Part shown: piece by piece, positions 48,147 through 62,438 of the stretch
Layout: each line of letters starts with the position of its first letter
How positions within the stretch are numbered: the stretch's first letter is position 1
Assembly: GCA_964562145.1 (NCBI GenBank)
Contig: CAZLSP010000011.1
Location: forward strand, 16,259 to 80,258
Reading direction: 5' to 3'
From: an uncultured Anaerolinea sp.
GTDB lineage: Bacteria; Chloroflexota; Anaerolineae; Anaerolineales; Villigracilaceae
Length of the DNA: 64,000 bases
Notes under the pieces: model-generated
What the model was told of the DNA's origin: nothing
Seen by the model: the letters and a program-made list of their open reading frames with translations, nothing else
Database searches by the model: none
Position numbers and translations under genes: made by a program

Positions 48147-48315
48147 TGCGGGTATCCAATAAGATTGTTTGTGCCGTTGCTGCGGCCTCGTGCGGGTGGT
48201 CGACCTCCAGGTGCATGCCAAACGGGAATTGCGGCATCAGCAACCTGGTGATGGTCGATTTCCGGGCCTTGGGTGGGCCGCTTAAAATGTAAACGGGTGC
48301 AGGCTGAACAGTCAT
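48130..48315 (-). pseudogene. Possible remnant of a P-loop kinase/ATPase gene (61-aa ORF with degenerate Walker A)
   Basis: MTVQPAPVYILSGPPKARKSTITRLL resembles the N-terminus of small P-loop NTPases, but GxxGxGKST reads GPPKARKST. The ORF stops after 61 aa and overlaps the next gene start. Confidence 0.3.
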
Positions 48316-48355: not shown

Positions 48356-48859
48356 TTATTTTTCCAGCCACCGGGCGACCAGCCCCACTGCTTCAGGCAG
48401 CAGGGCGCGGGTTCGTTCTGAGAGCTCACGCGAGAACTCGAACTGATAACCACGCACCGAAAGGAGCGCGGCATCGGGCTTTTTGTTATACAGGGTTTCG
48501 CACATGGAAACCAGCGATTGCGCGGTCAGGTGGTGGGTGAACGGCGAACGCTGGAATTCGCTTTCCACCGCAATCATGCGCACCGGAACGGGGATATCGC
48601 CGGTATGGGCATCTACAAAGCAGACGCGGTCATAGGCGGCGATATCCTCGGCCATTTCGGGAGTCAATTGTAAGGTAAAAGCAAAATCCAGTTGTGCGCC
48701 CCGCACGTTCCAACGCGGGTCATCGACAGGAAACTCTTCCTCATAGCTGTTAGGGGCGGGCAGGCCCAATTCAAGCGCCAGCGCCCGCAAAACATGCCAG
48801 GCTACGCCATCGTCCTCGCGGTCTGGATTTCCATACCCGTGAATCAATATTCGCTTCAA
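48356..48859 (-). CDS. NiFe-hydrogenase maturation endopeptidase (HoxW/HycI/HyaD family)
   Basis: 167 aa with TTG start. ILIHGYGNPDREDDGVAWHV (GxGNxxxxDDGxG) and VDAHTGD motifs. Confidence 0.85.
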   Translation of the reverse strand: MKRILIHGYGNPDREDDGVAWHVLRALALELGLPAPNSYEEEFPVDDPRWNVRGAQLDFAFTLQLTPEMAEDIAAYDRVCFVDAHTGDIPVPVRMIAVESEFQRSPFTHHLTAQSLVSMCETLYNKKPDAALLSVRGYQFEFSRELSERTRALLPEAVGLVARWLEK

Positions 48860-48862
48860 ATC

Positions 48863-49309
48863 TTATCTTCCGTAACCTGTTCCTAAGATGTAGTTCTCGA
48901 GCTCAGTAATCATGCCTTTATGATCGGCCAGGAGACCCTCTGCCAGGCCGCGGATGGAGACCATGCCAACGACTTTATCGCCATCGAGCACCGGCAGGTG
49001 GCGCACATGATATTTGCGCATCAGCCCGGCGGCCTCTTCCAGGGTGGTTTCGGGTTTGATGAGTACCATCTGGCTGGTCATCACATCTTTAATGATGGTA
49101 TCGCGGGCCAGCCGACCTTTGACTTCGCCTTCGCGGGCGTAATCGCGCTCGGTGAAAATACCGACAATCTTGTTGTCGTCGATCACCAGCACTGCGCCGG
49201 TATTGCCCTCGTTCATGGTTTGCAGGGCATGGAACACAGTATCGGTAGCGGCAACGGTGTAGATGCGTGAATCGGGCTTGGCTTCAATCAATTTACGAAC
49301 TGTCGTCAT
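48863..49309 (-). CDS. CBS-pair domain protein
   Basis: 148 aa, two CBS repeats (GAVLVIDDNKIVGIFTERD; HLPVLDGDKVVGMVSIRG). Confidence 0.85.
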   Translation of the reverse strand: MTTVRKLIEAKPDSRIYTVAATDTVFHALQTMNEGNTGAVLVIDDNKIVGIFTERDYAREGEVKGRLARDTIIKDVMTSQMVLIKPETTLEEAAGLMRKYHVRHLPVLDGDKVVGMVSIRGLAEGLLADHKGMITELENYILGTGYGR

Positions 49310-49425
49310 GGCTGAACTCCTTGGGTAGATGGGTTAAACAGCATTGGACAACGACAGTACCTCTAAAAGGCAAACTCAGATACCCTTATTTTACGTCCAA
49401 TTTTTAGGAACAGTAGTTTTTTTGA

Positions 49426-49465
49426 AACATTGCCTGGAACCCATGCAAGAATTCCAGGCAATGTT
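49426..49465. repeat. 14-bp perfect inverted repeat with 12-nt spacer in the large-subunit/CBS intergenic gap
   Basis: AACATTGCCTGGAA-N12-TTCCAGGCAATGTT. The T- and A-tracts sit on the wrong sides for an intrinsic terminator on either strand. Confidence 0.6.
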
Positions 49466-49517
49466 GGTGAAAAACGGCATCCGAAACCGGCGTGATTTGG
49501 ATGTTCAGGCGGGCAAA

Positions 49518-50945
49518 TTAATCGCGTTTCAAGGTCTGGCGCAGGCTGCCATCCGGGTTGATGATATCTAACTGGATGGGCATCTGGCCGACGGCATGGG
49601 TGGAGCACGAAAGGCAGGGGTCGTAGGCGCGGATGGCGGCTTCGACGCGATTGAGCATCCCTTCGGTTACATCCGGGCCCTTGACATAGGTCTTGGCAAC
49701 GCTATCGACGGCATTGCTCATGGCCCAGTTGTTGTGCCCGGTGGAGACAATCAAATTAACCTTGAGCAGTTTGCCGTTTTCGTCAGCAGTATAGTCGTGA
49801 ATCAGCGTGCCGCGCGGGGCTTCGATGATGCCCACACCGTGACCGGTGTAATTCTTGCGGGTGTTCAAGATATCGGTGCTCAAGATGTCCTTGTCTTCGA
49901 GGAGCACGCGCACGCGTTCGGTTGCGAACAGGGCCTCGACCAGGCGCGCATAGTGATAGTACAAGGTATTTTCGACCGGTTTTCCGCCGTTGAGCGTTTT
50001 GAAAACTTTGAGTTCTTCATTCGCCAGCGGGGTGTCGATTTTCTCGGAGATGTTCAGGCGGCCCAGCGGACCTACGCGGTAAACGCCATCGGGGTAACCC
50101 ATCTTTTTGTAGAACGGGAACTTGAGATACGACCACGGTTCAACATGTTCCTGGATGTAGTCGAGATAATTCGCGCCGTCAAATTTTTCGAGCTGCGCGC
50201 CTTCGCGGTTGATCAGGCGGATGTTGCCATCGTAGAGTTCCAGGCCGTTTTCGGGGGTGACGAGGCCAAAGTAGCCGGTGGGGAAGACCGCAAACTTGTT
50301 GATGTCTTCCATGTTGGCGGCGGCCCAATCTTTCATGATTTGCAGCCCGATTTTGAGCGTGGCAATGGCTTCATCCACACCCTTTAGGATGGAATCGCGT
50401 TCTTCGACCTTGAGCGATTTGTTGACGCCGCCAGGCACGGCAAAAACGGGGTGAATGCGGCGACCGCCCAGGGTTTTGATGATTTCCTGGCCGAACTTGC
50501 GCAGCATAACCGCTTTAACAGTCAGTTCGGGGTTGGCGCCGATCAAGCCGACGACATTGCGCATTTCAGGGGCGGCATCGAAGCCCAGCAACAGGTCCGG
50601 TCCGGCCAGTTCAAAGAAGTGCATGCCGTGGCTCTGGATGATCTGGCCCATGTGCATTAATTCGCGCAGCAGGCTGGCAGGGCGCGGCGGGGTCTGGCCG
50701 GTGAGGGCGTCGCCAGCTTTGGCAGCGGCCAGGTGATGGCTGACGGGGCAGATGCCGCAGATGCGCGGGGTGATTTGGGGCATTTCAAAGTACAGGCGGC
50801 CTTCGCAGAATTTTTCAAATCCACGAAACTCGTTGACGTGCATGAAAGCGCGTTCAACGGTATTGTCTTCCTTCATGCGGATCGTGACCTTGGCATGCCC
50901 CTCGATACGGGTAACGGGTTCAATCGTAATTTTCTGTGTGCTCAT
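49518..50945 (-). CDS. [NiFe]-hydrogenase large subunit, group 3 (HoxH/HydL-like)
   Basis: 475 aa. [21 protein letters not shown] (L1) and C-terminal DPCLSCSTH (L2), followed by a 26-aa tail of the kind removed by the endopeptidase. Confidence 0.92.
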
Positions 50946-51021
50946 TATGACCTCTGGTAAGGATGAATGCAGGCGGTGAAAAGATGAAATAAAAACGTTT
51001 TACATCCATCCTTCAATGTTT

Positions 51022-51564
51022 TTAGTGCCAGTGCAGCAATTCGTCTTTGAGTTCCGGTTTGCGGCCCTGGGCAAGTTCGGCCAGGACGTGGAAGATTACA
51101 TCCGCATCAGGCGGGCAGCCGGGGACGTTGTAATCGACCGGAACCACTTCGTGAATGGCGCGGGTTTTGGTCATGGTCGCCAGTTCGGGGTCGTTGGGGA
51201 CCTGGCTGCCGGGTTCGTTGCTCTCGGCTTCCACATAAGCGCGCTGCAGGGCGGCTTCTACCCCGCAGAAATTGCGCATGGCCGGGACGCCGCCAAAAAC
51301 GGCGCAGTCGCCGAGCGCAACCAGGATTTTTGCGCGCTTGCGGAACATATGGGCAACTTCTTCGCTGGCTGTGTTGTTGACGCCGCCTTCGAGCACACCC
51401 ACATCCACGCCGCTTTCATCGGGGTGTTTCAGGTCTGTAATTGGGGTGGAGCGCAGGTCGGCCAGTTCGGCGACTTGCAGGATGCGTTCGTCCATGTCGA
51501 GCAGCGACATGTGGCAGCCAGCGCAGCCGCACATCCAATCTGAAGCAATTTTCGGTTTAGCCAT
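51022..51564 (-). CDS. [NiFe]-hydrogenase small subunit, group 3 (HoxY/HydS-like)
   Basis: 180 aa. CGCAGCHMSLLD, ALGDCAVFGG, VPGCPP cluster ligands. Confidence 0.9.
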   Translation of the reverse strand: MAKPKIASDWMCGCAGCHMSLLDMDERILQVAELADLRSTPITDLKHPDESGVDVGVLEGGVNNTASEEVAHMFRKRAKILVALGDCAVFGGVPAMRNFCGVEAALQRAYVEAESNEPGSQVPNDPELATMTKTRAIHEVVPVDYNVPGCPPDADVIFHVLAELAQGRKPELKDELLHWH

Positions 51565-51580
51565 AATTCTCTCCTTACCT

Positions 51581-53572
51581 TTAATTCAGCACCACGCTCG
51601 ACTTGCGCTCGTGGATGGAAGTTTTCCAATCAGTTTTCACCGGCATATTCATGCGCATGGCAATCTCGCTCAACACCACGGTATTGGCGCGCACACCTTC
51701 GGGCGCTTCGAGGGCTTTTTCGGCCTTTTGGACACGCCCGTCCATGCTCACATAGTGGCCTTCTTGCTCAGACCACGCGGTCACGGGCAGGACGACATCT
51801 GCCTGGGCGGTGAGTTTGGATTCGTAAGTGGCTTGCACCACCAGGTAGGGGGCTTTCGACAGGCGTTCGACCAGCCATTTGGAAGCGTAGTCATCACCAA
51901 TCGCCGCATAAACGGCTTTCTGGCCGTTGAGCGCAAATTCGCCATCCAGATGGAGTTGGGCGGCGGCCACGCTGTTGGCTTCACCCTTGACGGACAGCAA
52001 TCCCATCCGTTCCTGGTCCACTGCCCCGACGAGTTTCGCCAGCCCGAGCAGGGCTTCAACGATCTTCTCGTCGCGTTTGGCGGTAATGCCCTTGCCGTAC
52101 AGGATAACCGGGCTAATGGCGTGCGCCAGCATGCGGGCAGCACTGGTCAGCGCTTCGAGGCTCAGGCCGGTCTGTTGGATAGCTTCGGCAATGACCTTGT
52201 CGGCGTTGGGTACTGGCAGCGGGGTGCGGCCCAGGTTTTCTTTGACAACGATGGCTTTCAGGCCTTCAATTAGCGCCAGGTCGGAACCCGGTTTGTTTTT
52301 GAGCGAGACATCGGCCAGGTCGTTGAAATCTTCAGCTTCGGGGTCGATATTGATCAGGCGCATGCCTTTGGGCAGGGCGCGTTTGACCATAAAACCGGCC
52401 ACCATGTGGCTGCGAGCCAGGTTCGCGCCGATGCACAGCACGGTATCGGCATTTTTGAGCGTGCCGAGCTGGCCTTCAAAAGCGCCATTCTTCTCGGCCA
52501 CGGCATTGACGGCGGCGGTTGTCATGCCCTCTTCGGTGCTGGTGACCATTTCGGCCTTAAGTGAACCGGCGAACAATTCGCGGAACATGGCCAGGGCTTC
52601 GGCGGGCAGGCGGGTAGAAGCGATGGCAGCCACACCGTTATGGGCATCGCCAGCCAGCGGTTTGAGTTTATCGGCAACGGCGCCCAGGGCTTCATCCCAT
52701 GAGACAGGGGTCAGTTGGCCGTCTTTACGCATCAGCGGGGTGGTGATGCGCTGGCGGGATTCGGTCATCGGGTCGTAGCGGCCGTGTTCGCAGAGCACGC
52801 CACGGTTCACGATTCCGTCCCAATCACCCTCGATGCGCACAATGCGGTTGTCACGCACGATGAGTTTGACCGCACAACCGACCGAGCAGCCGACACACAC
52901 CGATTTGACCTCGGTCATGTTTTCGTCGTGACCCTGGTAGGCGCTGGTGCGGTCAATCAGGGCGCCGGTGGGGCAAACCTGTACGCAGGAGCCGCATTTG
53001 ATACAGGTGCTCTCGCCCAGCGGGACATTGGTATCAGCTACGATGATGCTCGAAGCGCCGCGTTCGGCGACCGATAAGGTGAAGTTCCCGGCCATTTCGC
53101 CGCAGGCGCGCACACAGCGGCGGCACAGGATGCAGCGGTTGTTGTCGAGGATGAAGTAGGGGTGCGATGAGTCAACCACAAAGTTGTTCCAGCCGGGCTG
53201 CATGGGCCAGTGGGTCATTTCTTCGCGGTAGGCGGCGTTTTGCAGGTCGCAATCGCCACCGCTCACCTGGCAGAAGGGGCAGAAGTGGTTGCGCTCGCTA
53301 AAGAGCATCGACAGGATGAACTTGCGCGATTTCTTGAGCGATTCGGTTTCAGTGTTGACGACCATGTTGGGGCTGACAGGCAGCGTGCACGAGGCAATTG
53401 GCACGCGGAAACCCTGCACCTCGACGATGCACAGGCGGCAGCCGCCATACGGCGTCAGTTCTTTGTGATCGCACAGGGTCGGGATGTGAATGCCGGCTTT
53501 TTCCGCTGCGCGCAGCACAGTTGTCCCTTCGGGGACTTCGATTTGTTTTCCGTTGATAGTCAGTTGAACCAT
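51581..53572 (-). CDS. NuoG/HoxU-like Fe-S subunit with C-terminal molybdopterin-oxidoreductase-like domain (no H-cluster)
   Basis: 663 aa. N-terminal 2Fe-2S (CDHKELTPYGGCRLC...SC), HFCPFCQVSGGDC, CILCRRCVRAC, CIKCGSCVQVCP, CVGCSVGCAV, then a ~400-aa MopB-like domain. TSCCP/MPC..K/E.MAC.GGC motifs are absent. Confidence 0.82.
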   Translation of the reverse strand: MVQLTINGKQIEVPEGTTVLRAAEKAGIHIPTLCDHKELTPYGGCRLCIVEVQGFRVPIASCTLPVSPNMVVNTETESLKKSRKFILSMLFSERNHFCPFCQVSGGDCDLQNAAYREEMTHWPMQPGWNNFVVDSSHPYFILDNNRCILCRRCVRACGEMAGNFTLSVAERGASSIIVADTNVPLGESTCIKCGSCVQVCPTGALIDRTSAYQGHDENMTEVKSVCVGCSVGCAVKLIVRDNRIVRIEGDWDGIVNRGVLCEHGRYDPMTESRQRITTPLMRKDGQLTPVSWDEALGAVADKLKPLAGDAHNGVAAIASTRLPAEALAMFRELFAGSLKAEMVTSTEEGMTTAAVNAVAEKNGAFEGQLGTLKNADTVLCIGANLARSHMVAGFMVKRALPKGMRLINIDPEAEDFNDLADVSLKNKPGSDLALIEGLKAIVVKENLGRTPLPVPNADKVIAEAIQQTGLSLEALTSAARMLAHAISPVILYGKGITAKRDEKIVEALLGLAKLVGAVDQERMGLLSVKGEANSVAAAQLHLDGEFALNGQKAVYAAIGDDYASKWLVERLSKAPYLVVQATYESKLTAQADVVLPVTAWSEQEGHYVSMDGRVQKAEKALEAPEGVRANTVVLSEIAMRMNMPVKTDWKTSIHERKSSVVLN

Positions 53573-53599
53573 AAGTTCCTCGGTAAGATTCTTTGCTCT

Positions 53600-53635
53600 A
53601 CTTTCACCTTCTATTAATCAATAGCAGGTGAAAGT
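53600..53635 (-). other. Intercistronic stem-loop (NuoF-like / NuoG-like junction)
   Basis: ACTTTCACCT...AGGTGAAAGT (10 bp perfect) with an inner CTATT/AATAG extension. Lies between the stop at 53644 and the GAGGAA SD of the next gene. Confidence 0.55.
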
Positions 53636-53643
53636 GGGAAGTT

Positions 53644-55281
53644 TTAGGCTTTTTCCAGAACCGCGGCCATTTCGCAAATCCCTGTGGGGCAAACCCCCAG
53701 ACGAATATGCGCTTCGACTTCGGCGCGGAAATATTTCAGGGTGTCACGGATCGGCACGGCGGCGGTTTGTCCGAGGCCGCAGTTGGAAGCAATTTCCAGC
53801 TCTTCGGCCAGTTTGGTCAGCGTGTCGAGGTCTTCCAGTTTGGCGGTATTGTTGCCAATGGCGCTCAAGATGCGCAAGGCGCGTTCGGTGCCAACCCGGC
53901 AGGGGGTGCATTTCCCGCACGATTCGAACTTGAAGAACTTCATCAGCGTTGTTGCCAGGTCGACCACGCAGGTATTTTCGTCGCAAATCAGCAGTGCGCC
54001 TGAGCCGAGCGAAACACCCGCCTTGCGGAAAGATTCAAAATCCATGGGGGTGTCTTGCAGGCTGGCCGGGATGATCGAACCGCTGGAGCCGCCGGTTTGC
54101 GCCATTTTGAAGGTTGCGCCGTCTTTCATGCCCTGGCCGTAAATATTGATAATTTCACGCAGGGTGATACCCATCGGCACTTCGATCAGGCCTTTGAAGT
54201 TGACGTTGCCCAGGATGGTGTAGGTCTTGGTGCCAGGGCTGGAGGGTGTTCCAAAGGAGCGATACCACTCAGCGCCGTTCAGGATAATGGGCGGGACGTT
54301 TGCCAGGGTTTCGACGTTGTTGACCAGTGTCGGTTTGCCCCACAGGCCGTGGGTTGTTGGGTACGGGGGCCGCGCGCGTGGTTCGCCGCGTTTGCCTTCG
54401 ATCGATTCGAGCAGGGCGGTTTCTTCGCCGCATACATATGCGCCCGCGCCGCTATGGACATGAATGTCAAAATTGAAACCCGAATCAAGAATGTTATTGC
54501 CAAGCAGGCCGAAATCACGCGCCTGTACAATCGCTTTTTCGAGACGGCGCTGGGCCAACTGATATTCGCCGCGCACGTAGACGTAACCTTCGTCTGCGCC
54601 GACGCAGTAGGCCGCAATTGCCATCGCTTCGATGATGCTGTGCGGGTCGCCTTCCAGGATGACACGATCTTTGAAGGTTCCCGGTTCGCTTTCGTCGGCA
54701 TTACAGACCACATACTTTTTGGACGATTTTGTTCCGGCCACAAAGCGCCACTTGCGCCCGGTGGGGAACCCTGCCCCGCCGCGACCTTGCAGGCCCGATT
54801 GTTCCAATTCGGAGACGACCTGCATTCGTTCTTGCCCCAGGGCTTTTGCCAGCGCCTGGTAACCATCTTCGGCGATGTAATCTTCGATGTTTTCAGGGTC
54901 AATGCGACCTGTGCGGCGCGTTACAATCCGTTTTTCCATCGGGTTGGCGCCTTTGCGGGCCTTAAGCCAGCCAATACGGCCGGAAAGTTCCTTTACCGGG
55001 GCCAGCAGTTCTTCGGCAATGCGGCCTTTGTAGAGATGTTCTTCGACAATGCGATCAACATCGGTGACGGTAACCGGGCCGTAGGCGGCCGCTTCGGGGT
55101 AGACAATGACCAGCGGAAGGGCGTCATGCCGCCCTGCATCTGCAATTTGCGAAAGGGAGACTTCCTCGCTCAAGCCAAATTCGGCCAGCTTTTCTTCAAA
55201 GCGGCGGTACACATCCACTGCGCCACGGCGCAGGCTGTCAGGGTCGTTTGAAACCAGGATCATTGAACGGGCAAATTTCAT
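53644..55281 (-). CDS. NuoF/HoxF-like NAD(H)- and FMN-binding subunit (no C-terminal ferredoxin domain; Cys-less Trx-like N-domain)
   Basis: Start set to ATG 55281 (MKFARSMILVSNDP; 545 aa) with GAGAGG upstream. GRGGAGFPTGRKW, CNADESEPGTFKDR, ESCGKCTPCRVG, SNCGLGQTA. Confidence 0.88.
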   Translation of the reverse strand: MKFARSMILVSNDPDSLRRGAVDVYRRFEEKLAEFGLSEEVSLSQIADAGRHDALPLVIVYPEAAAYGPVTVTDVDRIVEEHLYKGRIAEELLAPVKELSGRIGWLKARKGANPMEKRIVTRRTGRIDPENIEDYIAEDGYQALAKALGQERMQVVSELEQSGLQGRGGAGFPTGRKWRFVAGTKSSKKYVVCNADESEPGTFKDRVILEGDPHSIIEAMAIAAYCVGADEGYVYVRGEYQLAQRRLEKAIVQARDFGLLGNNILDSGFNFDIHVHSGAGAYVCGEETALLESIEGKRGEPRARPPYPTTHGLWGKPTLVNNVETLANVPPIILNGAEWYRSFGTPSSPGTKTYTILGNVNFKGLIEVPMGITLREIINIYGQGMKDGATFKMAQTGGSSGSIIPASLQDTPMDFESFRKAGVSLGSGALLICDENTCVVDLATTLMKFFKFESCGKCTPCRVGTERALRILSAIGNNTAKLEDLDTLTKLAEELEIASNCGLGQTAAVPIRDTLKYFRAEVEAHIRLGVCPTGICEMAAVLEKA

Positions 55282-55291
55282 TGTTCGCCTC

Positions 55292-55810
55292 TCATTCATA
55301 TTTGGCGAAAATGCCGGCCAGTTGTTCTGGCGTGACATTGCCATAGACATCGTCATCCACCAGCATTACTGGGCCAACGCCGCAAATGCCCAGGCAGCTC
55401 ACGGTTTTGAGCGTGAAACGTCCTTCGGGGTCGGTTTGACCGGCTTTAAGCTTAAGAGTTTGCTGAATGGCCTTCCACAGTTCGCGTCCGCCTTCCACAT
55501 GGCAAGGCGCCGATTCGCAGAACTGCACCACATGCCGGCCCACCTCTTGGGTGTTGAGCATGTGATAGAACGAAGCCAGTCCGTACAATTGACCTTCCGA
55601 GACCAGGACATGCTCTTCGGGTTGGTGCAGCAGCTTGCGTGCCAGCCGAATAGCCCGGGCCGGGATATAACCGTACTCGTGGTTGATTTCCAGCAAGATC
55701 GGGATGAAGGCGTCGGCGTGGGCGCCATGTCTCTCGACCGCAGTTTCCACAATGCCGGTCAGGTCTTTCTCTTGTCCCGCCTGGAGCGGGGCTTCCGCAA
55801 CTTTGAACAT
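55292..55810 (-). CDS. NuoE/HoxE-like [2Fe-2S] subunit
   Basis: 172 aa. FCESAPCHVEGG ... VSCLGICGVGPVMLV. Confidence 0.88.
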   Translation of the reverse strand: MFKVAEAPLQAGQEKDLTGIVETAVERHGAHADAFIPILLEINHEYGYIPARAIRLARKLLHQPEEHVLVSEGQLYGLASFYHMLNTQEVGRHVVQFCESAPCHVEGGRELWKAIQQTLKLKAGQTDPEGRFTLKTVSCLGICGVGPVMLVDDDVYGNVTPEQLAGIFAKYE

Positions 55811-55833
55811 CCTGCCTCCTAAAAACCTTTTTA

Positions 55834-55856
55834 CCCTCTCCCGTGGCGGGAGAGGG
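55834..55856 (-). other. GC-rich intercistronic hairpin between the two flavoprotein modules (possible partial terminator)
   Basis: CCCTCTCCC-N5-GGGAGAGGG. On the minus strand it is followed by TAAAAAGGTTTTTAGGAGG and the next ATG. Confidence 0.5.
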
Positions 55857-55867
55857 CAGGGTGAGGG

Positions 55868-57655
55868 TTAACTCAAAACGCTGATTGCGTTGAAGTTACA
55901 AACCTGGACACAGATACCGCAGCGGATGCATTTGTCCACATCGATAAGGTGCGCTTGCCGTCGTTCGCCTGTGATGGCTTCGACCGGGCAGTTGCGCGAA
56001 CACACCGTACAACCTGTGCAGGCCGGGGCCTGGATTTCGTAACGGATGAGCGCGCGGCACACCTTCGCCGGACATTTCTTTTCGTAAATATGGGCTTCAT
56101 ACTCAGCCCGGAAGTGCTTCAACATGCTGATGACGGGGTTGGGTGCACCCTGGCCAAGACCGCACAGCGAATTCTTGGTAATCTCAACGCACAAGTCTTC
56201 CAGCAGGGCCAGGTCACTGGGTTCGCCCTTGCCTTCGCAAATTTTTTCGTGAATTTCGAGCAGGCGGCGTGTTCCCACGCGGCAGGGAGTGCATTTGCCA
56301 CACGACTCTTCCTGGGTGAATTCCATGAAGAAGCGCGCCATATCGACCATGCAGGTTTCGTCATCCATGATGATCAGGCCGCCGGAGCCCATCATCGATC
56401 CAGCCGCGGTCAGGGCCTCGTAATCAAGTGGCAGGTCGAGGTGTTCTTCCACCAGACAGCCGCCCATCGGGCCGCCCGTCTGAATCGCCTTGAACTGTTT
56501 GCCGTCTTTGATGCCGCCGCCCACGTCGAAGATGACTTCGCGCAGGGTAATGCCGAACGGCACTTCAATCAGCCCGGTATTAACCACGTCACCGGCGATG
56601 GCGAAGGTCTTGGTGCCTTTGCTCTTCTCGGTACCCATACCGGCGTACCAATCTGCGCCATTCAAGACAATCTGCGGGACAACGGCATACGTTTCGACGT
56701 TGTTGTTATTGGTGGGTTTGCCCCACACCCCTTTAACCGCCGGGAAGGGCGGGCGCGGGCGGGGTTCGCCACGTTTGCCTTCGATGGAAGCGATTAGGGC
56801 GGTTTCTTCACCGCAGACGAAAGCGCCTGCGCCCATGCGCACTTCCAGGTCAAAGGAAAAATCGGTGCCGAACACATTTTTGCCAAGGAAGCCAAATTCG
56901 CGCGCCTGGGCAATGGCAATGTTCAGGTTTTGAACCGCAATTGGGTACTCTGCGCGGCAGTAAATGTAACCCATGCTCGCGCCGATAGCGTACGCGGCGA
57001 TAATCATGCCTTCTACCACCGAATGCGGGTCGCTTTCGAGCACGCGGCGGTTCATAAACGCGCCGGGATCACCTTCGTCTGCGTTGCAGGTCAGGTATTT
57101 GGGGTTATCAGGCACCTGGCGGCAGAGTTGCCACTTGCGCGCGGCCGGGAAACCCGCGCCGCCGCGCCCGCGCAACCCAGATTTCATCACTTCGTCGATA
57201 ACCTGTTCCGGTTTCATCTCGGTGATGACCTTGGCCAGCGCTGAATAGCCATCTTCGGCGATGTAGTCTTCAATGTTGTGCGGGTCGATCTTGCCGCAGT
57301 TGCGCAATACAATGCGAACTTCTTTGGGCTTGGGCGCGCCGAGCTCTTCGTCGGTAATCGCCTTTTCCTGGGCGCGGAATTTTTCGACCACGCGGCCCTT
57401 GAGGAAGTGCTCTTCAACCAGGTAGGGGATGTCGTCCACGCTCAGGCTGGCGTAGTGAACATTTTCCGGGTAAACGAGCATGTCGGGGCCGAAGCGGTGC
57501 GGGTCGCCAATGCGCGACGTTTCCAGCACTTGCACTTCATCATTCAAGCCCTGCGCGATCAATTCGTCGTTCAGGGCGTCAATCACTTCGTGCGCCCCGC
57601 GAGACAGGCACTCAGGATCTACAGATACTAGGATGTGTGAACGATAAAAAGCCAT
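55868..57655 (-). CDS. NuoF/HydB-like flavoprotein with C-terminal 2x[4Fe-4S] ferredoxin domain (bifurcating-HydB architecture; Cys-poor Trx-like N-domain)
   Basis: Start set to ATG 57655 (MAFYRSHILVSVDP; 595 aa). GRGGAGFPAARKW, CNADEGDPGAFMNR, ESCGKCTPCRVG, C-terminal CTGCTVCSRNCP ... CIRCGICVQVC. Confidence 0.88.
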   Translation of the reverse strand: MAFYRSHILVSVDPECLSRGAHEVIDALNDELIAQGLNDEVQVLETSRIGDPHRFGPDMLVYPENVHYASLSVDDIPYLVEEHFLKGRVVEKFRAQEKAITDEELGAPKPKEVRIVLRNCGKIDPHNIEDYIAEDGYSALAKVITEMKPEQVIDEVMKSGLRGRGGAGFPAARKWQLCRQVPDNPKYLTCNADEGDPGAFMNRRVLESDPHSVVEGMIIAAYAIGASMGYIYCRAEYPIAVQNLNIAIAQAREFGFLGKNVFGTDFSFDLEVRMGAGAFVCGEETALIASIEGKRGEPRPRPPFPAVKGVWGKPTNNNNVETYAVVPQIVLNGADWYAGMGTEKSKGTKTFAIAGDVVNTGLIEVPFGITLREVIFDVGGGIKDGKQFKAIQTGGPMGGCLVEEHLDLPLDYEALTAAGSMMGSGGLIIMDDETCMVDMARFFMEFTQEESCGKCTPCRVGTRRLLEIHEKICEGKGEPSDLALLEDLCVEITKNSLCGLGQGAPNPVISMLKHFRAEYEAHIYEKKCPAKVCRALIRYEIQAPACTGCTVCSRNCPVEAITGERRQAHLIDVDKCIRCGICVQVCNFNAISVLS

Positions 57656-57676
57656 AATTAAGAACCTTTGCTTGGC

Positions 57677-57706
57677 GTCATTGCCCAAAATTGGGGGAGC
57701 AATGAC
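57677..57706 (-). other. Intercistronic stem-loop (Trx-like / NuoF-like junction)
   Basis: GTCATTGC...GCAATGAC (8 bp) with an inner CCAA/TTGG pairing. Confidence 0.45.
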
Positions 57707-57718
57707 CCTTCTTTGGGA

Positions 57719-58087
57719 TTACGCCGGGACGACGTAGTCGTTGACGACCTTGCCGCCCTGGACATGCTGTTCCATAATCTGCTGTGCCACAAACGGGGTT
57801 ACTTTTCCATAGGTTACCGGGGCGGCCTCGCCAATAATGACCTGCACAATCGGTTCCCACGAATCCATGCCGATGTTACCGGTCTGGCGGACGGTGATAT
57901 TCGCCAGGTTTTTCTCTTCGATGATTCCCAGGATCTCTTTCAGGGTTTCGCGCGCGCCTGCGGCAATGCCCGGTGTCCCCATCCCAACAACAATCTGGAT
58001 GCTGCCCGGTGCCGATTTGATATCACGCTTTTTGAGGGCTTCTTCGCGAATTTTTTTCAGGTCTTCCAGTGATTTTACGGTAGGCAT
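57719..58087 (-). CDS. Thioredoxin-like [2Fe-2S]-ferredoxin-fold protein (HydD-like) lacking all cysteines
   Basis: 122 aa. IQIVVGMGTPGIAAGARETL ... RQTGNIGMDSWEPIVQV matches the Trx-like ferredoxin pattern, with the four Cys positions replaced. No Cys anywhere in the ORF. Confidence 0.7.
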   Translation of the reverse strand: MPTVKSLEDLKKIREEALKKRDIKSAPGSIQIVVGMGTPGIAAGARETLKEILGIIEEKNLANITVRQTGNIGMDSWEPIVQVIIGEAAPVTYGKVTPFVAQQIMEQHVQGGKVVNDYVVPA

Positions 58088-58143
58088 ATTCTCTCCTTGT
58101 TCCAGTTTCCCTTCTTCCGATGAAGGCAGAAGGCCGGTGAGGG

Positions 58144-58707
58144 TTAATTCAAAACCTTTTGGGCCTCACCGATCCCATCCTCGAGCATCCCACGCAGGTA
58201 GGTGAGCACTTCGGGGTGGGTGATGGGCAGGCCATCCAGGGTTTCTTTGATCGGCTCGTCATCGTATTCGAAGGCTTCTTCCGAACCGTTTTTGCGGGCC
58301 GTATAGTTAAAGATCCAATGAATATCGGGATGGGCGACTGACAGGCCCAAAAAGGTGGTGGGCAAGTTCCCGAGCGGCATCCGGTCGATGTGCGAATGCT
58401 GGAAGGTCACTTCTACCCGTGTGCCGACTCCCGGCTGCGAGGCAATCTTCAGCCCGCCGTTGGTTTCTTCTGCGGCTCCCTTAAGCAGCGGAATTCCGAG
58501 ACCTACCTTGCGGGTGGTGCGGCTGGTGTAAAACGGGTCTGTCACTTTGCGGACGGTTTCTGCGTCCATCCCGCGCCCATCATCTTCAATGCTGGCTGTC
58601 AATACATCAGTGTTCAGGTCTTCGCAAATGGTGATTTTCACCGTCTGCGCACCCGCAGAGACGCTATTTTCGGCCAGGTCGAGGAGATGAAGGGCAATTT
58701 CTTTCAT
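58144..58707 (-). CDS. Small HATPase_c (histidine-kinase-like ATPase) protein
   Basis: 187 aa. HLLDLAENSVSAGA (N box), IEDDGRGMD (G1), GLGIPLLK (G2). Confidence 0.8.
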   Translation of the reverse strand: MKEIALHLLDLAENSVSAGAQTVKITICEDLNTDVLTASIEDDGRGMDAETVRKVTDPFYTSRTTRKVGLGIPLLKGAAEETNGGLKIASQPGVGTRVEVTFQHSHIDRMPLGNLPTTFLGLSVAHPDIHWIFNYTARKNGSEEAFEYDDEPIKETLDGLPITHPEVLTYLRGMLEDGIGEAQKVLN

Positions 58708-58742
58708 ACTTGCTCACAGGGAAGGGCGAAACGCCTTCGCGA

Positions 58743-59243
58743 TTAACCTTCCAGCAGCTTTTTGATAAGTTGCGGGAACTTGTTGGGCTTAATACGCCCG
58801 ACAACTTCTTCGTCAACCGTTACGACTGGCGCCTGTGAACAGGCCCCCACGCAGCGGCAGATTTCCATTGTCAGGTTGCCATCGGGGGTTGTTTGACCAA
58901 TATCGGTACCAGTCAGTTGTTTGGCTTTTTCAATCAACTGCGGAACCCCACCTACATAACAGGCGGTTCCCATGCAGAACTTCATGGTGTGTTTGCCGCG
59001 AGCCTGGGTGGTGAAAAAGGAATAAAAAGTGACAACGCCATGCACTGCGCTGACCGGCACACGCATTTTCTTGGCGATGTAAGCCTGCATTGGTTCTGAG
59101 ACATAACCTACCTGGCTTTGGGTGTTGTTCAAGACGACCATCAGAGCGCCCGGGCGGTCTTTGTTTTCGGCGATGATCTGGTCGAGGATGGCGCGTTTGT
59201 TATCGCATAATCCATCAGTATGGGTGGGTGTTGCTTCTTCCAT
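58743..59243 (-). CDS. NuoE/HydC-like [2Fe-2S] subunit
   Basis: 166 aa. KFCMGTACYVGG ... EICRCVGACSQAPVV. Confidence 0.88.
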   Translation of the reverse strand: MEEATPTHTDGLCDNKRAILDQIIAENKDRPGALMVVLNNTQSQVGYVSEPMQAYIAKKMRVPVSAVHGVVTFYSFFTTQARGKHTMKFCMGTACYVGGVPQLIEKAKQLTGTDIGQTTPDGNLTMEICRCVGACSQAPVVTVDEEVVGRIKPNKFPQLIKKLLEG

Positions 59244-59267
59244 GCTAAACTCCGTGTTATGGATAAT

Positions 59268-59285
59268 ATGTGAAAAATTTCACAA
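59268..59285. promoter_or_regulatory. Rex-type operator in front of the NuoE/HATPase/Trx/NuoF unit
   Basis: ATGTGAA-AAAT-TTCACAA matches 13 of the 14 specified positions of TTGTGAA-N4-TTCACAA. Lies 25 nt upstream of ATG 59243 and just downstream of a TTGACA-17-TAAACT promoter. Confidence 0.6.
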
Positions 59286-59293
59286 TCAACCCT

Positions 59294-59322
59294 AGTTTAC
59301 TCGCTCATTTGCTGGATGTCAA
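59294..59322 (-). promoter_or_regulatory. Candidate internal sigma70 promoter
   Basis: Minus strand reads TTGACA (59322-59317), 17 nt, TAAACT (59299-59294). Confidence 0.4.
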
Positions 59323-59419
59323 ATAACAAATGTCATATTGTAGGGTGAAGGTTATCTATCCCTGATCACCCGTTGGAATGGCGTGACAGGGATGGGCGTG
59401 ACGGTCGCCCCGGTGGGGA

Positions 59420-60154
59420 TTAAGCTTGCAGGTGGAGCTGGCGTCCACCTTGGCTGGAAAGTGCCAGGCGGATTTCGGCGATGCTCGGGGCGGCCAGGGT
59501 CAACCTGGTGGAGCCCAGGAAGCCATCGAGCAGGTGTACATCACCGCTCTGGAAGAGCGGGTAGCCGCGCAGCTGCGGGAATTTTTGCCGGGCCGCATCG
59601 GGTTGGATATGGCGGGAGATTTCAAGCGCCTCGAACCCGGGTGGGACCAGCCCCAAGATTTCGATTAGCCCGTTGGCTTTACGGTCTACATGGGCCGGGA
59701 TGGCCAGCCCGCCCAGGGCATTTACCTGCGCGGCAGCTTCTTCTAGCCCGATCTCGGCTGAGTTGATCAGCAAACGCTCCTCGCGGCGGATAAATTCGCC
59801 GCTGGCATCGACCACGAATTGTTCGCCGAAATATTCAATGTTATTGGGAATATTGGGGAGGCGTTGATCGACCGTTTTTTGCCAGTCGGCGACCTGTGCG
59901 AGTGTGTCGAACAGGCACAGCAGGTGGACTTCTTCGCGAGTCTGGAGTTCCATGCCGGGCAATACCACCAGGTCGGTCCCCTGTGCGGCTTCCATGACGG
60001 CGGAAATGTTGGCGCTGGCGTTGTGGTCTGTAATGGCCAGCAGGCCGATGCCGCGCTCAAGCGCTTCTTGCACAATTAACGGGGGAATCATCTCTACTGC
60101 CGCGCAGGGCGAGAGCACCGTATGAACGTGCAATTCGGCGCGGTAGGTTTTCAT
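59420..60154 (-). CDS. PHP-domain metal-dependent phosphoesterase
   Basis: Start set to ATG 60154 (MKTYRAELHVHTVLSPCA; 244 aa), 1 nt after the upstream stop. HVHT, ITDHN, PAHVDR motifs. Confidence 0.82.
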   Translation of the reverse strand: MKTYRAELHVHTVLSPCAAVEMIPPLIVQEALERGIGLLAITDHNASANISAVMEAAQGTDLVVLPGMELQTREEVHLLCLFDTLAQVADWQKTVDQRLPNIPNNIEYFGEQFVVDASGEFIRREERLLINSAEIGLEEAAAQVNALGGLAIPAHVDRKANGLIEILGLVPPGFEALEISRHIQPDAARQKFPQLRGYPLFQSGDVHLLDGFLGSTRLTLAAPSIAEIRLALSSQGGRQLHLQA

Positions 60155-60155
60155 T

Positions 60156-60500
60156 TTAGGCCTGTTTAATGCCCATACCCCATAGTTGCCCGACCACTTC
60201 ATACGTCGATTTGGTGGTCCCAAATAGATTAACGCCCTGGGCATTGGCTTTTTCAATGACAGCGGGTTCGGGCAGGCCGCCTTCGGTAATGATGATTGCC
60301 GCTATATCGTTTAGTGAGGCCACCGCAACAATGTTGACATGCGCCTGGATGGTGACCCAGATGTTACCGGGCTTGGCTCCAGCCATGACACAGCTTAGTA
60401 AATCGGATGCGTACCCGCCGCTGGGCCGCATGGCAGAAAAGTCTTGGGGTTCAGTGAAAACCGTCAGGTTAAAGTAAGCGATCACATCTTCCAGGTTCAT
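60156..60500 (-). CDS. DRTGG-domain protein
   Basis: Start set to ATG 60500 (MNLEDVIAYF; 114 aa). GGYASDLLSCVMAGAKPGNIWVTIQAH...IIITEG. Confidence 0.75.
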   Translation of the reverse strand: MNLEDVIAYFNLTVFTEPQDFSAMRPSGGYASDLLSCVMAGAKPGNIWVTIQAHVNIVAVASLNDIAAIIITEGGLPEPAVIEKANAQGVNLFGTTKSTYEVVGQLWGMGIKQA

Positions 60501-60501
60501 T

Positions 60502-61524
60502 TCAGGCTCCGTTGTTTTCAGGTGCAGATTCAGGGGGTTCGCTTTCTTTGAAGCGCTCATCGGGGCGCAGGTAAATTTCCATGAGCAGTTTGGTGCCCTT
60601 CCCAGGCGTGGAGTCGAGATCCATCCGGTCGACGCAGCGGCGGATGTTGACCAGCCCCATGCCCGCGCCAAAGCCCATATCGCGCACTTCCTGGGTGGCG
60701 GTTGACCAGCCGGGGGTTAGCGCCTGTTCGACATTGGCAATGCCGGGGCCGTCGTCGGTGGTTTGCATCAGGATGCGATGCGGTTCAATTTGCACCCGCA
60801 TGATGCCGCCGTGATCGGTATGGATGATCAGGTTCATTTCGGCTTCGTAAATGGCAATCCCGCACTGGCGCGCCAGTTGTGGGTTGGCGCCCAGGCGCAG
60901 CAGCGCGCGTTTGATGTGGCTGGACGCCTGCCCACCATTGACATAGTCGCGGGCTTTGATGTTGTAGCGCAAGATCAGGCTGGTGCGGTCAGAAGTGATG
61001 TCTTCAAAGAGGTGGCTGGCGCGGTAACGGCGCAGTTCTTCTTCTTTATAATCTTTTTGCAGGGCGGTCAGGATGCCGCGCGTGATATCGCCTTTGGTGA
61101 TGATGCCAACCAGTTTGTCGGTCTCATCGACCACCGGCAGGCGGCCAACGCGATATTCACTAAAGGTCTCAAGGGCTTTGACAACCGAATCGTAGGCGTT
61201 GACGCTGACAACGGTGTTGCTCATGTACTGGCTGACCGGCATGGAAAGCTCATTCTTTTCCATGGCGCGGACGATGTCCTCGATGCTTAAAATTCCCACC
61301 AGGTTGCCGTTGGTGATGACCGGGACACCAGAAATGCGCCCGATGCGTAAGATTTCGAGCACTTCCGAAACCTTCATCGCGGGGGTGACGCTTCTGACTT
61401 CACGCGTCATGACCTCGTTGATTTTCAGGTCATACGAAAGTTCTTCCACGCGGCTGATGTCGCGGGCATCGCGGTCGGTGATCGGGCGGCCTTTGCGGCC
61501 GTAAAGCTCCTGGAGGCTAGACAT
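60502..61524 (-). CDS. CBS-pair + HATPase_c (anti-sigma-factor-type serine kinase-like) protein
   Basis: Start set to ATG 61524 (MSSLQELYGRK; 340 aa), overlapping the upstream TAG by 8 nt. Two CBS repeats, then AIYEAEMNLIIH...TDDGPGI...GFGAGMGL. Confidence 0.8.
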   Translation of the reverse strand: MSSLQELYGRKGRPITDRDARDISRVEELSYDLKINEVMTREVRSVTPAMKVSEVLEILRIGRISGVPVITNGNLVGILSIEDIVRAMEKNELSMPVSQYMSNTVVSVNAYDSVVKALETFSEYRVGRLPVVDETDKLVGIITKGDITRGILTALQKDYKEEELRRYRASHLFEDITSDRTSLILRYNIKARDYVNGGQASSHIKRALLRLGANPQLARQCGIAIYEAEMNLIIHTDHGGIMRVQIEPHRILMQTTDDGPGIANVEQALTPGWSTATQEVRDMGFGAGMGLVNIRRCVDRMDLDSTPGKGTKLLMEIYLRPDERFKESEPPESAPENNGA

Positions 61525-61888
61525 CGTCGTGGTTGGGGAGGGTCGATTCGAAGCTGTGCAGCCCGGCTTCGTACAACCTGCCGCACAATTCGAACATCCC
61601 GTAGGGGCTGGTGATGAGCGGGATGTTTTCCTGGGCGGCCAGTTCGATGGTTTCGGGCTGGGGAATTTTCCCGCGTACAAAGACAATCGCGCGCACATCC
61701 GCCATCTGGGCTGTGCGTACCACCTGCACATTGCACAATCCGGTCAGTAGAACGGCATCCGGTTTAATGGAGGCCAGTACATCGCTCATTAAGTCGGCCC
61801 CGCACCCGCCGCGAATTTCGCGGTTAAGGGATACGTTGGGTGTTAACAGCGTCCCACTCACTACTTTAATAAGGCTTTTGACGTCCAT
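61517..61888 (-). CDS. DRTGG-domain protein
   Basis: 123 aa. GGCGADLMSDVLASIKPDAVLLTGLCNVQVVRTA...IVFVRG. Confidence 0.75.
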   Translation of the reverse strand: MDVKSLIKVVSGTLLTPNVSLNREIRGGCGADLMSDVLASIKPDAVLLTGLCNVQVVRTAQMADVRAIVFVRGKIPQPETIELAAQENIPLITSPYGMFELCGRLYEAGLHSFESTLPNHDDV

Positions 61889-61916
61889 AAGATAAAAATA
61901 ACTCCTTGCTTGAGCA

Positions 61917-62438
61917 TTATTCCTGAATATGTAAATCTTTTAACACCGCACCCTGCGTTAAGGCGTGCTTAAGCGTTTCTTCCTCTATCCGCGCACCGGT
62001 CAGGTCGGCGCCGCCCAGGTTGGCTTCTTCCAGGATGGCTCCGGTCAGGTTCGATTCGCGCATCATTGCCCCGCGCAGGTCGGCGTAGGAGAGATTGGCC
62101 TCGTGCAGGTTGGCGCGGAAAAGGCGGGCGTCGGTAAGGAAAGCGCCGGTCAGGTCGGCCTGGGTCAGGTTTGTGCACGAAAGTTCCAGGTCAATATCGT
62201 CCAGGTTAGGATCGATGATGTTATCGTGCGCAATCCCCAGGTGGGCGCGGTTGAGCAGCGCCCCGCGCAGGCTGGCCCTAAACAGGCTGGCTCCGCCCAA
62301 ATCGGCTTCGCGCAGGTCGGCGCCATTGAAGATGATTCCGTTTAGGTGAGCGCCGCGCAGGTTGACTTTTTCCAGTTTTTCACCCGAAAAGTCGATGCGC
62401 CCGGCGTGGAAAGCAGCGAGTAGTTCGTATCCATTCAT
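61917..62438 (-). CDS. Pentapeptide-repeat protein
   Basis: 173 aa of A(D/N)LxX repeats (ANLSYADLRGAMMRESNLTGAILEEANLGGADLTGARI). Only 28 nt from the next gene. Confidence 0.9.
   Translation of the reverse strand: MNGYELLAAFHAGRIDFSGEKLEKVNLRGAHLNGIIFNGADLREADLGGASLFRASLRGALLNRAHLGIAHDNIIDPNLDDIDLELSCTNLTQADLTGAFLTDARLFRANLHEANLSYADLRGAMMRESNLTGAILEEANLGGADLTGARIEEETLKHALTQGAVLKDLHIQE

Follow-up and report, generated by a model that had tools for sequence, protein, structure and literature searches.

A NiFe-HydABCSL-type hydrogenase locus with two non-equivalent NuoE/NuoF pairs in an uncultured Anaerolinea sp.

The NiFe-HydABCSL hydrogenase of Acetomicrobium mobile has been purified and its structure solved (PDB 7T2R/7T30; Feng et al. 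2022, PMC8880783), and its class was named 'type 3 NiFe-Bfu' by Schut et al. (2022, PMC9304861). The A. mobile operon comprises five structural genes (Anamo_1675-1678 and 1681) plus those of HydD, HydP, and HisK, and the locus-tag numbering suggests that hisK is placed between hydC and hydB (PMC8880783). Here, we analyzed a 64,000-nucleotide (nt) stretch from an uncultured Anaerolinea sp. of the Chloroflexota (contig CAZLSP010000011.1, positions 16,259 to 80,258), hereafter referred to as the window. Its list of open reading frames (ORFs) contains 16 genes that run in one direction on the minus strand, from 62438 to 48356 (Table 1), and eight of them follow the order hydC-hisK-hydD-hydB-hydA-hydS-hydL-hydP, which is that of the A. 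mobile operon (PMC8880783). Judged by its sequence, the locus is a cytoplasmic NiFe-HydABCSL-type hydrogenase operon of the Bfu family, i.e., of a known class, and its unusual part is the insertion of a second pair, NuoE2/NuoF2, between hydB and hydA.

Bifurcating and non-bifurcating NADH hydrogenases are regarded as distinct enzymes, encoded in distinct operons, and the choice between them decides the H2 pressure tolerated and the energy saved by a fermenter or syntroph. The locus appears to encode both kinds of NADH module side by side for one core, and dozens of Anaerolineae populations, known from metagenomes of sludge, sediment, and wetland, retain this arrangement.

Catalytic core and the bifurcating-type module

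Domains were assigned with Pfam and NCBIfam profiles, and structural relatives were taken from sequence matches in the PDB. The domains found agree with the co-directional string of 16 genes described in an earlier note on this DNA. The best PDB match of HydL was 7T2R_D (575 bits, full length, E=1.6e-171), followed by MvhA and HoxH with 423 and 419 bits, respectively. HydL has a C-terminal extension and carries RICGIC (residue 61) and DPCLSCSTH (residue 442); that is, the NiFe large-subunit signature (RxCGxC, DPCxxCxxH) was found together with a single-cluster small subunit, HydS, which is 64-91% identical across orthologous loci. For HydA, the best match was 7T2R_A (310 bits, residues 2-644 against 4-665), and alpha subunits of NAD-dependent formate dehydrogenases came second, with 231-241 bits. 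Its domains are Fer2_4, NADH-G_4Fe-4S_3, two Fer4, Molybdop_Fe4S4, and Molybdopterin, with no PF02906, and by domain these correspond to a [2Fe-2S] cluster, a His-ligated [4Fe-4S] cluster, 2x[4Fe-4S], and the Molybdop_Fe4S4 cluster. The pterin-like domain is present and the Molydop_binding domain is absent. An H-cluster-less HydA with a pterin-like C-terminal domain and a fifth cluster is expected of the NiFe-HydABCSL type.

The earlier note had seen the HydA slot as lacking HydA, a claim that does not stand, as the NuoG-like protein of 663 amino acids (aa) aligns end to end with 7T2R_A and is the H-cluster-less HydA. The same note was right that no H-cluster is encoded: PF02906 and PF02256 matched no ORF of the cluster, the motifs TSC[CS]P, MPC..K, and E.MAC..GC had zero occurrences in the six frames of the cluster region, and TSC[CS]P and E.MAC..GC had zero occurrences in any frame of the whole 64-kb window. 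Its remark that no characterized enzyme of such a composition was known is not supported, since the A. mobile NiFe-HydABCSL has the eight genes in the same order, and HydL, HydA, and NuoF1 all found their best PDB match in that enzyme. As the A. mobile operon already has it, the HisK/HydD/HydB prelude before a NiFe dimer is not new.

The first flavoprotein pair is formed by HydC1 (NuoE1) and HydB1 (NuoF1). The best PDB match of NuoF1 was 7T2R_B (822 bits, full length), with 66.5% identity over 421 core columns. Both NuoF proteins were aligned to A. mobile HydB, and ligands are numbered according to Feng et al. NuoF1 has the flavin-site motifs A..M, F, and GGPMG, the last with one substitution relative to GGPSG; the four Cys of site B1; C438, C476, H525, C531, and C536 of site B2; and the full set of eight Cys in its C-terminal 2x[4Fe-4S] domain. 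NuoF1 thus shows the features by which HydB was recognized, namely the bifurcating motifs, B1, the B2 Cys/His ligands, and the C-terminal 2x[4Fe-4S]. The N-terminal [2Fe-2S] ligands, by contrast, are lost, with S-C-R-P in place of the C-C-C-C of A. mobile. Schut et al. (2022, PMC9304861) count this thioredoxin (Trx)-like N-terminal cluster of HydB among the five that are conserved in BfuB. For NuoE1, the top four PDB matches were all HydC/NfnC of the bifurcating family (135-112 bits), with complex I NuoE at about 70-79 bits, and the four Cys for a [2Fe-2S] cluster expected of HydC were seen in the sequence. HydD contains zero cysteines and is, therefore, cluster-less. The Trx-like [2Fe-2S]-fold modules at 57719-58087 (HydD), 57500-57655 (NuoF1), and 55130-55281 (NuoF2) are all without cluster cysteines.

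The second NuoE/NuoF pair and its recurrence

The earlier note had proposed that the two NuoE/NuoF pairs are non-equivalent and that only one of them has bifurcating-HydB architecture, and this was borne out. Losey et al. (2020, PMC7311640) separated bifurcating from non-bifurcating beta subunits by three flavin-site criteria; in Thermotoga maritima HydB numbering, the non-bifurcating proteins have T/S and K/S/A at 232/234, Y at 367, and no GGPSG at 427-431. At these sites, NuoF2 has T..K, Y, and GGSSG, and T, K, and Y were present in all 12 of the 12 'second NuoF' proteins of other loci. NuoF2 ends 9 residues past C536, with no ferredoxin-like C-terminal domain, and its N-terminal Trx-like domain has no Cys. 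Its four-Cys B1 site, the loops for flavin mononucleotide (FMN) and NADH, and the N3-type cluster ligands are intact; in B2, it keeps C438, H525, C531, and C536, which are invariant in 11 orthologues, and has Gly in place of C476. From its motifs, the NuoF2 class is predicted to be non-bifurcating, as it would lack every candidate ferredoxin entry site and carries an NADH-only signature. The rule that a tail-less protein is non-bifurcating was rejected as a sufficient test. Cyanobacterial HoxF is tail-less, keeps AFM/F/GGPSG and the N-terminal cluster, and was reported to bifurcate (2026 preprint); therefore, the flavin-site motifs tell more than the tail. The second pair cannot be called Hox-like, as the earlier note had done, since NuoF2 lacks both the N-terminal [2Fe-2S] ligands and AFM/F/GGPSG, and its partner is the 663-aa HydA and not a HoxU of about 240 aa. 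NuoE2 scored alike against HydC (108 bits) and Escherichia coli NuoE (97 bits).

A neighbor-joining tree of NuoF proteins (about 430 columns, 200 bootstraps, rooted with E. coli NuoF) separated the A..M/F-type proteins, NuoF1 and A. mobile HydB included, from the NuoF2 type and E. coli NuoF with 99% bootstrap, and grouped the Anaerolineae/Moduliflexus NuoF2 with 98%. A recent duplication of NuoF1 was rejected as the origin of NuoF2, given this split and the 54% identity between the two proteins; on the tree, NuoF2 forms a lineage of its own, and an old one. Cluster representatives with no less than 69% identity to NuoF2 numbered more than 120, all of about 545 aa. The exact 545-aa form, with its start at 55281, is present on five public contigs, whereas a 570-aa form with an upstream ATG is not on record and was rejected.

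Close orthologues of the locus were obtained from a look-up of contigs encoding NuoF2 and from a metagenome scan, which added 80 loci. A contig profile scan with the universal motifs Y[VI][VI]CNADE and SEPGTFKD served as the comparison set; among the matches listed, most were generic FeFe HydB loci, and only L009 and L048 (our locus numbers) were near relatives. All loci were annotated by comparison with the proteins of the window, and merging NuoF2 sequences at 90% identity left 55 groups, of which 48 could be judged upstream and 7 could not; metagenome contigs may over-represent some habitats. NuoF1-NuoE2-NuoF2 was retained in 41 of the 48 judgeable groups, and the arrangement is, therefore, not due to chance; NuoF1 was missing in the other seven, mostly in the order HydD-E2-F2-. 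Downstream of the double pair, we found HydA-HydS-HydL in 18 groups, FdhA in 8, and both in 2. This FdhA has about 930 aa with Molydop_binding, or is split into about 370 + 555 aa, a pattern that a selenocysteine codon (in-frame UGA) with read-through would produce. In L091 (16387-19164) and L092 (11686-14454), the FdhA gene is split into ORFs of about 365 and 545-555 aa. Candidatus Villigracilis affinis and further orthologous loci have the same 15-16 gene order as the window.

These data bear on whether one pair is just an evolutionary leftover, in the sense that the HydA of a bifurcating operon gave way to a NiFe (or formate-dehydrogenase-like) cassette, with one flavoprotein pair left redundant or decaying. 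The cassette and the HydC-HisK-HydD-HydB prelude are common before FeFe HydA, and the Trx-like [2Fe-2S] ligands were lost in NuoF1, NuoF2, and HydD, as such a history would have it. Against this, both pairs are intact, with 65-91% identity across dozens of independent contigs and with all FMN, NADH, and cluster ligands kept, and selection for both is indicated by the independence of the gene orders (window and L009) and of the catalytic partners. We consider a leftover very improbable. Displacement of HydA, the second option of the earlier note, can still be the evolutionary history of the locus, but it leaves the retention of the double pair unexplained.

The operon encodes two B and two C subunits for a single A subunit, against one of each per A in the pentameric NiFe-HydABCSL type. 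We give about an even chance to the reading that one HydA-HydS-HydL core works with two alternative modules, one bifurcating and one NADH-only, which would both dock on the shared HydA. This reading is proposed because a single A-type subunit accompanies the double pair in NiFe, formate dehydrogenase, and FeFe contexts, and because the order is permuted in L009 and NuoF2 stands alone in L006 and L098. In L009 (Anaerolineaceae), the genes run cassette-E2-F2-E1-HisK-HydD-F1-HydA-S-L-P; therefore, either pair can adjoin HydA. L006 and L098 contain E2-F2-HydA-S-L without NuoF1, from which it follows that NuoF2 alone suffices for a window-type HydA. Moreover, since the double pair precedes HydASL, FdhA, or, analogously, FeFe HydA, it is modular. 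Of the first option of the earlier note, the part that stands is one NiFe enzyme with two flavin modules, which is the reading that we favor; the Hox-like nature of the second module was not upheld.

Under this reading, HydC1/HydB1 with HydASL would couple NADH and reduced ferredoxin to H2, as in A. mobile, and NuoE2/NuoF2 with the same HydASL would produce H2 from NADH alone, a reaction favorable solely at low H2 pressure. The activity that marks the NiFe-HydABCSL type is the reduction of NAD+ and ferredoxin at the same time with H2. Two isoforms or mixed dimers would result in the window organism, and the cell could alternate between H2 production assisted by ferredoxin and H2 production from NADH alone; relatives would have an equivalent choice for formate production. 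Transcription of both units would be controlled by the NADH/NAD+ sensor Rex, with the sensor cassette and 'HisK' adding nucleotide-dependent control. Cultured Anaerolineae are fermentative and partly syntrophic, and NADH-only H2 production at low H2 pressure would fit. The complete picture, a 'two-gear' enzyme in which a NiFe core (formate dehydrogenase in relatives, FeFe in other phyla) swaps or mixes bifurcating and plain NADH modules, the docked pair sets the H2/formate coupling, and Rex and the CBS/HATPase/PHP cassette exert control, is offered tentatively, as we think it somewhat more probably wrong than right in its entirety.

Other phyla offer the analogous FeFe cases. One NuoF of the AM/F type and one of the T..K/Y type precede a genuine FeFe HydA in Caldisericota (L013, L041), Elusimicrobia (L024), and Verrucomicrobiota (L040), and a Bipolaricaulota locus has both NuoF types with NiFe. 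The AM/F/GGPSG NuoF of other phyla is either tail-less or of about 1,000 aa with a C-terminal extension that is not the 2x[4Fe-4S] tail. In the FeFe clusters of L013 (7904-11644), L024 (7925-11590), and L041 (7904-11641), both NuoFs are without a ferredoxin-like tail; the first has the N-terminal Cys and AM/F/GGPSG, like cyanobacterial HoxF, and the second has T..K/Y and no N-terminal Cys. The deltaproteobacterial locus L049 (6614-16697) contains two complete FeFe sets in tandem, HisK-HydD-NuoE-NuoF-HydA, with non-bifurcating motifs in NuoF, and NuoE-NuoF-HydA, whose NuoF has bifurcating motifs and about 1,019 aa with a C-terminal extension. The bifurcating-type first NuoF measures about 1,040-1,058 aa in L122 (6215-9358), L126, L149, and L151, and in L122 it is fused to GltD/NfnB-like Fer4_20 and Pyr_redox_2 domains, which gives a third pyridine-nucleotide site in a cluster with two NuoFs.

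Such fusions are relevant to the idea of an obligate super-complex that contains both flavoprotein pairs and in which the FMN sites cooperate, e.g., on different pyridine nucleotides or with a second NAD(P)H site feeding the bifurcating core. The fusion of NuoF1 to a GltD/NfnB-like NAD(P)H domain in some orthologues indicates that additional nucleotide sites can be accommodated, the 1:1 pairing of the genes in one operon is strictly conserved, and the A. mobile HydABCSL and Hox enzymes are dimers of pentamers, so that mixed assemblies are sterically conceivable. However, the seven orthologue groups without NuoF1 keep the rest, which means that the second pair works without the first, and no known bifurcating-family structure has two B per A; the NADH/NADPH preference of the NuoFs is unreadable from sequence. 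A super-complex is, in our judgment, improbable.

Several observations weigh against alternative modules on a shared core. The window-type HydA, 47-80% identical among orthologues, invariably adjoins NuoF2, and the HydA found beside a NuoF1-type gene in L009 and L064 shares only 38-41% identity with that of the window; the window HydA may, therefore, have NuoF2 as its sole native partner. L049 has a separate FeFe HydA for each pair. NuoF1 is without N-terminal [2Fe-2S] ligands, which are conserved in the bifurcating family according to Schut et al. (2022), and NuoF2 retains the B2/Zn Cys3His site, said to be missing from non-bifurcating homologues. The NuoF trees are neighbor-joining trees on about 430 columns. 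The scanned ORFs of the window contained no rex gene. In addition, in the window organism, a hairpin of -27 kcal/mol parts the two halves of the operon.

This hairpin, at 55834-55856, where the earlier note had considered transcript termination, exists; for the 58-nt spacer between hydB1 and nuoE2 in which it lies, the folding energy is -27.3 kcal/mol. It was not among the terminators called by the scan, and no U-run is adjacent. In the closest relatives, the spacer holds unrelated GC-rich hairpins, and in many others it measures 1-10 nt. A conserved terminator was rejected for these reasons, and the short spacers of many relatives indicate that co-transcription is ancestral. Here, the hairpin may tune the ratio of the two halves.

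Some of these observations leave room for two separate enzymes in tandem: NuoE2-NuoF2-HydA-HydS-HydL as a complete non-bifurcating NADH-dependent NiFe hydrogenase, and HydC1-HisK-HydD-HydB1 as an A-less bifurcating core ('type 4' Bfu) with a partner elsewhere or a regulatory or sensing role, their adjacency reflecting co-regulation only. The stand-alone E2-F2-HydA-S-L of L006 and L098, the constant position of window-type HydA beside NuoF2, the hairpin between the halves, and the one HydA per pair in L049 would all agree with this, and A-less bifurcating BC cores have been described (PMC9304861). It fits poorly with the adjacency of the pairs in 41 of 48 groups, often 1-10 nt apart; with L009, where NuoF1 is directly before HydA and E2-F2 lies upstream; and with the double pair before FdhA or, in other phyla, FeFe HydA, each time with a single A-type subunit. 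Nor does the cluster contain an alternative third-substrate module. We rate two separate enzymes as rather unlikely and retain the shared core as the favored reading. If both modules do dock on it, the locus would be a simple natural switch between two modes, and it would provide a defined system for what makes a NuoF-type flavoprotein bifurcate, with two paralogues on the same partner.

Sensor cassette, intergenic elements, and the surrounding window

The coordinates of the 16 genes and of the intergenic elements are given in Table 1. Several ORF starts, as listed, were too early, and shorter starts were preferred. The likely starts are 61524 for the CBS-HATPase protein (340 aa), which overlaps the DRTGG1 stop, 60500 for DRTGG2, 60154 for PHP, and 57655 for NuoF1 (595 aa); with the revised starts, neighboring genes of the cassette touch or share a few bases.

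Table 1. Genes and intergenic elements of the hydrogenase locus in window coordinates.
Feature	Position	Strand	Description or evidence
Promoter-like TTGCCA-16-TATACT, then Rex-like operator TTGTGATTTTTATCACAA	62546-62519; 62498-62515	-	upstream of pentapeptide gene
Pentapeptide-repeat protein, 173 aa	61917..62438	-	first gene; PF00805 E=1.8e-29
DRTGG-domain protein 1, 123 aa	61517..61888	-	PF07085
CBS-pair + HATPase_c_2 protein, 340 aa	60502..61524	-	anti-sigma-type Ser kinase-like; PF00571 x2, PF02518, PF13581
DRTGG-domain protein 2, 114 aa	60156..60500	-	PF07085 slightly under cut-off; orthologues in many loci
PHP-domain phosphoesterase-like protein, 244 aa	59420..60154	-	closes sensor cassette; PF02811
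Promoter-like TTGACA-17-TAAACT, 8 nt later Rex-like operator TTGTGAAATTTTTCACAT	59322-59294; 59268-59285	-	176-nt gap before hydC1
HydC1 (NuoE1), [2Fe-2S] subunit	58743..59243	-	bifurcating-type pair; PF01257 (2Fe-2S_thioredx) E=9e-44
'HisK', 187 aa	58144..58707	-	HATPase_c only, without HisKA; PF02518
'HydD', 122 aa	57719..58087	-	Trx-like ferredoxin-fold; weak 2Fe-2S ferredoxin match (NF041612)
HydB1 (NuoF1), 595 aa	55868..57655	-	bifurcating type; Complex1_51K, NADH_4Fe-4S, C-terminal Fer4 dicluster
GC-rich hairpin CCCTCTCCC-GCCAC-GGGAGAGGG	55834..55856	-	between hydB1 and nuoE2; AGGAGG next
NuoE2 (HydC2), [2Fe-2S] subunit, 172 aa	55292..55810	-	second pair; PF01257 E=3.7e-40
NuoF2 (HydB2), 545 aa	53644..55281	-	predicted non-bifurcating type; NuoF domains, without Fer4
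HydA, 663 aa	51581..53572	-	H-cluster-less NuoG/FdhA-like Fe-S subunit; Pfam, PDB match
HydS, NiFe small subunit, 180 aa	51022..51564	-	PF01058 (Oxidored_q6)
HydL, NiFe large subunit, 475 aa	49518..50945	-	PF00374 (NiFeSe_Hases)
CBS-pair protein, 148 aa	48863..49309	-	208-nt gap before; PF00571
HydP, maturation endopeptidase, 167 aa	48356..48859	-	TTG start; TIGR00072 54.7 bits (cut-off 47.45)

In the surveyed loci, the cassette DRTGG/CBS-HATPase/DRTGG/PHP precedes bifurcating-type HydC/HydB coupled to FeFe HydA, NiFe HydSL, or formate dehydrogenase. The earlier note had regarded it as the usual prelude to the HydA of FeFe enzymes; it is not FeFe-specific, as the same cassette occurs with NiFe in L026 and with formate dehydrogenase in L030 and L092. 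Going by these gene neighborhoods, the cassette goes with the bifurcating flavoprotein module rather than with the FeFe HydA. DRTGG1 is kept across orthologous loci, and orthologues of the pentapeptide gene occupy the equivalent place in L089 and L092. The CBS-HATPase protein is a putative sensor of nucleotides or energy charge, and the cassette, together with the HATPase-only 'HisK', probably adds nucleotide-dependent control.

Only two sizeable intergenic gaps are located at unit starts, and each contains a sigma-70-like promoter with a Rex-like box within about 2-8 nt downstream of it. The consensus used was the 18-bp palindromic Rex operator TTGTGAANNNNTTCACAA, documented for Caldicellulosiruptor; it has two matches in the 64-kb window, against 0.31 expected by chance, with one mismatch at 59268-59285 and two mismatches at 62498-62515. 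Rex-like boxes were also found in L008, 81 nt upstream of DRTGG1 and 22 nt upstream of NuoE1, and in L009, 14 nt upstream of NuoE1. Rex represses Hyd operons in C. bescii (PMC6391272). Both units are probably repressed by the NADH/NAD+ sensor Rex, whose predicted binding follows from these boxes.

At the other end of the operon, the gap of 208 nt between hydL and the CBS gene (49310-49517) includes an inverted repeat of 10 bp, TTGCCTGGAA...TTCCAGGCAA, and then GTTTCAAAAAAA. This repeat may be a weak or bidirectional terminator, and CBS-hydP may form a separate unit. A CBS gene between hydL and hydP also occurs in L008, L089, L094, L098, and L106. Directly downstream of hydP, at 42017-48221 (minus strand), there are three M23/LysM peptidase-like genes and a gene for a Peptidase_MA_2 protein; LysM/M23 genes also follow the hydrogenase cluster in L008, L089, and L092.

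Elsewhere in the window, selenocysteine synthase, SelA, is encoded at 38661-40082 (plus strand; PF03841 E=1e-127). Subunit I of cytochrome bd oxidase is encoded at 25069-26472 (minus strand; PF01654 E=2e-159) in an otherwise fermentative-looking genome, which suggests O2 tolerance or microaerobic respiration. A 1541-aa ORF lies at 19143-23768 (minus strand). The ORFs of 954 aa (35420-38284, plus strand) and 690 aa (12601-14673, minus strand) had no Pfam match at E<=1e-5, and the Rfam scan of the whole window gave no match.

Comparison with known systems

FeFe HydABC clusters with a prelude of the cassette, HisK, and HydD have the same genes in the same order in about 20 of the fetched loci (e.g., L012, L016, L019, L020, and L034), and their FeFe HydA was verified in L012 and, for the double-NuoF type, L013; the window differs in having no H-cluster. 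TM1420-1422 of T. maritima was considered as another case of a second NuoE/NuoF pair and rejected, as it belongs to a sensory FeFe hydrogenase (PMC3561251).

HoxEFUYH (group 3d) resembles the locus in being a NiFe enzyme that is soluble and NAD-linked, with one cluster in its small subunit and a NuoE/NuoF diaphorase, and the Joint Genome Institute annotation calls the window large subunit an 'NAD-reducing hydrogenase large subunit'. The features of group 3d are nevertheless missing: HoxU has about 240 aa and HydA 663 aa; HoxF has the N-terminal [2Fe-2S] cluster and AFM/F/GGPSG and NuoF2 has neither; and HydL is closer to A. mobile HydL than to HoxH. The layout of NuoE2-NuoF2-HydA is that of FdsG-FdsB-FdsA in FdsABG, the NAD-dependent formate dehydrogenase of Rhodobacter capsulatus (PDB 6TG9); the formate dehydrogenases of the bifurcating family (Fdh-Bfu) are close systems as well, and a true FdhA follows NuoF2 in 8-10 orthologue groups. 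In contrast to these enzymes, the window HydA lacks Molydop_binding and is followed by NiFe HydSL, and there is no FdhA in the window.

The flavin site of NuoF2 resembles that of Syntrophomonas wolfei Hyd1ABC and Syntrophus aciditrophicus HydAB (Losey et al. 2017, 2020; PMC7311640), with which it shares T/S..K, Y, and no GGPSG, and also the lack of the C-terminal 2x[4Fe-4S]. Those enzymes are FeFe hydrogenases with a single flavoprotein module, whereas NuoF2 occurs with a NiFe dimer (or FdhA) and beside a bifurcating-type module, and it keeps the B2/Zn Cys3His site. The survey shows that a motif-based classification needs every NuoF of a cluster and not the first alone.

Nothing relevant to a double HydB/HydC arrangement, to NiFe-Bfu in Chloroflexota, or to DRTGG cassettes was found in the open-access literature, although such an absence is weak evidence. 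Within that literature, the NiFe-HydABCSL class is known; new are the phylum for the class and the pairing of bifurcating and predicted non-bifurcating modules for one core, which is also re-used for formate dehydrogenase. NiFe-Bfu had been reported only from Synergistetes and Halorhabdus, and the window places it in Chloroflexota, widening the range of the NiFe-HydABCSL type beyond a few Synergistetes to a phylum that is abundant in the environment. With the A. mobile enzyme, the locus shares the H-cluster-less pterin-like HydA, the tailed HydB, HydC, the single-cluster HydS, and HydL, as well as the accessory genes HisK, HydD, and HydP in the same order. It differs from A. mobile in the extra NuoE2/NuoF2 between hydB and hydA, in a HydB1 without the four N-terminal [2Fe-2S] cysteines, and in the CBS gene before hydP and the cassette and pentapeptide gene upstream.

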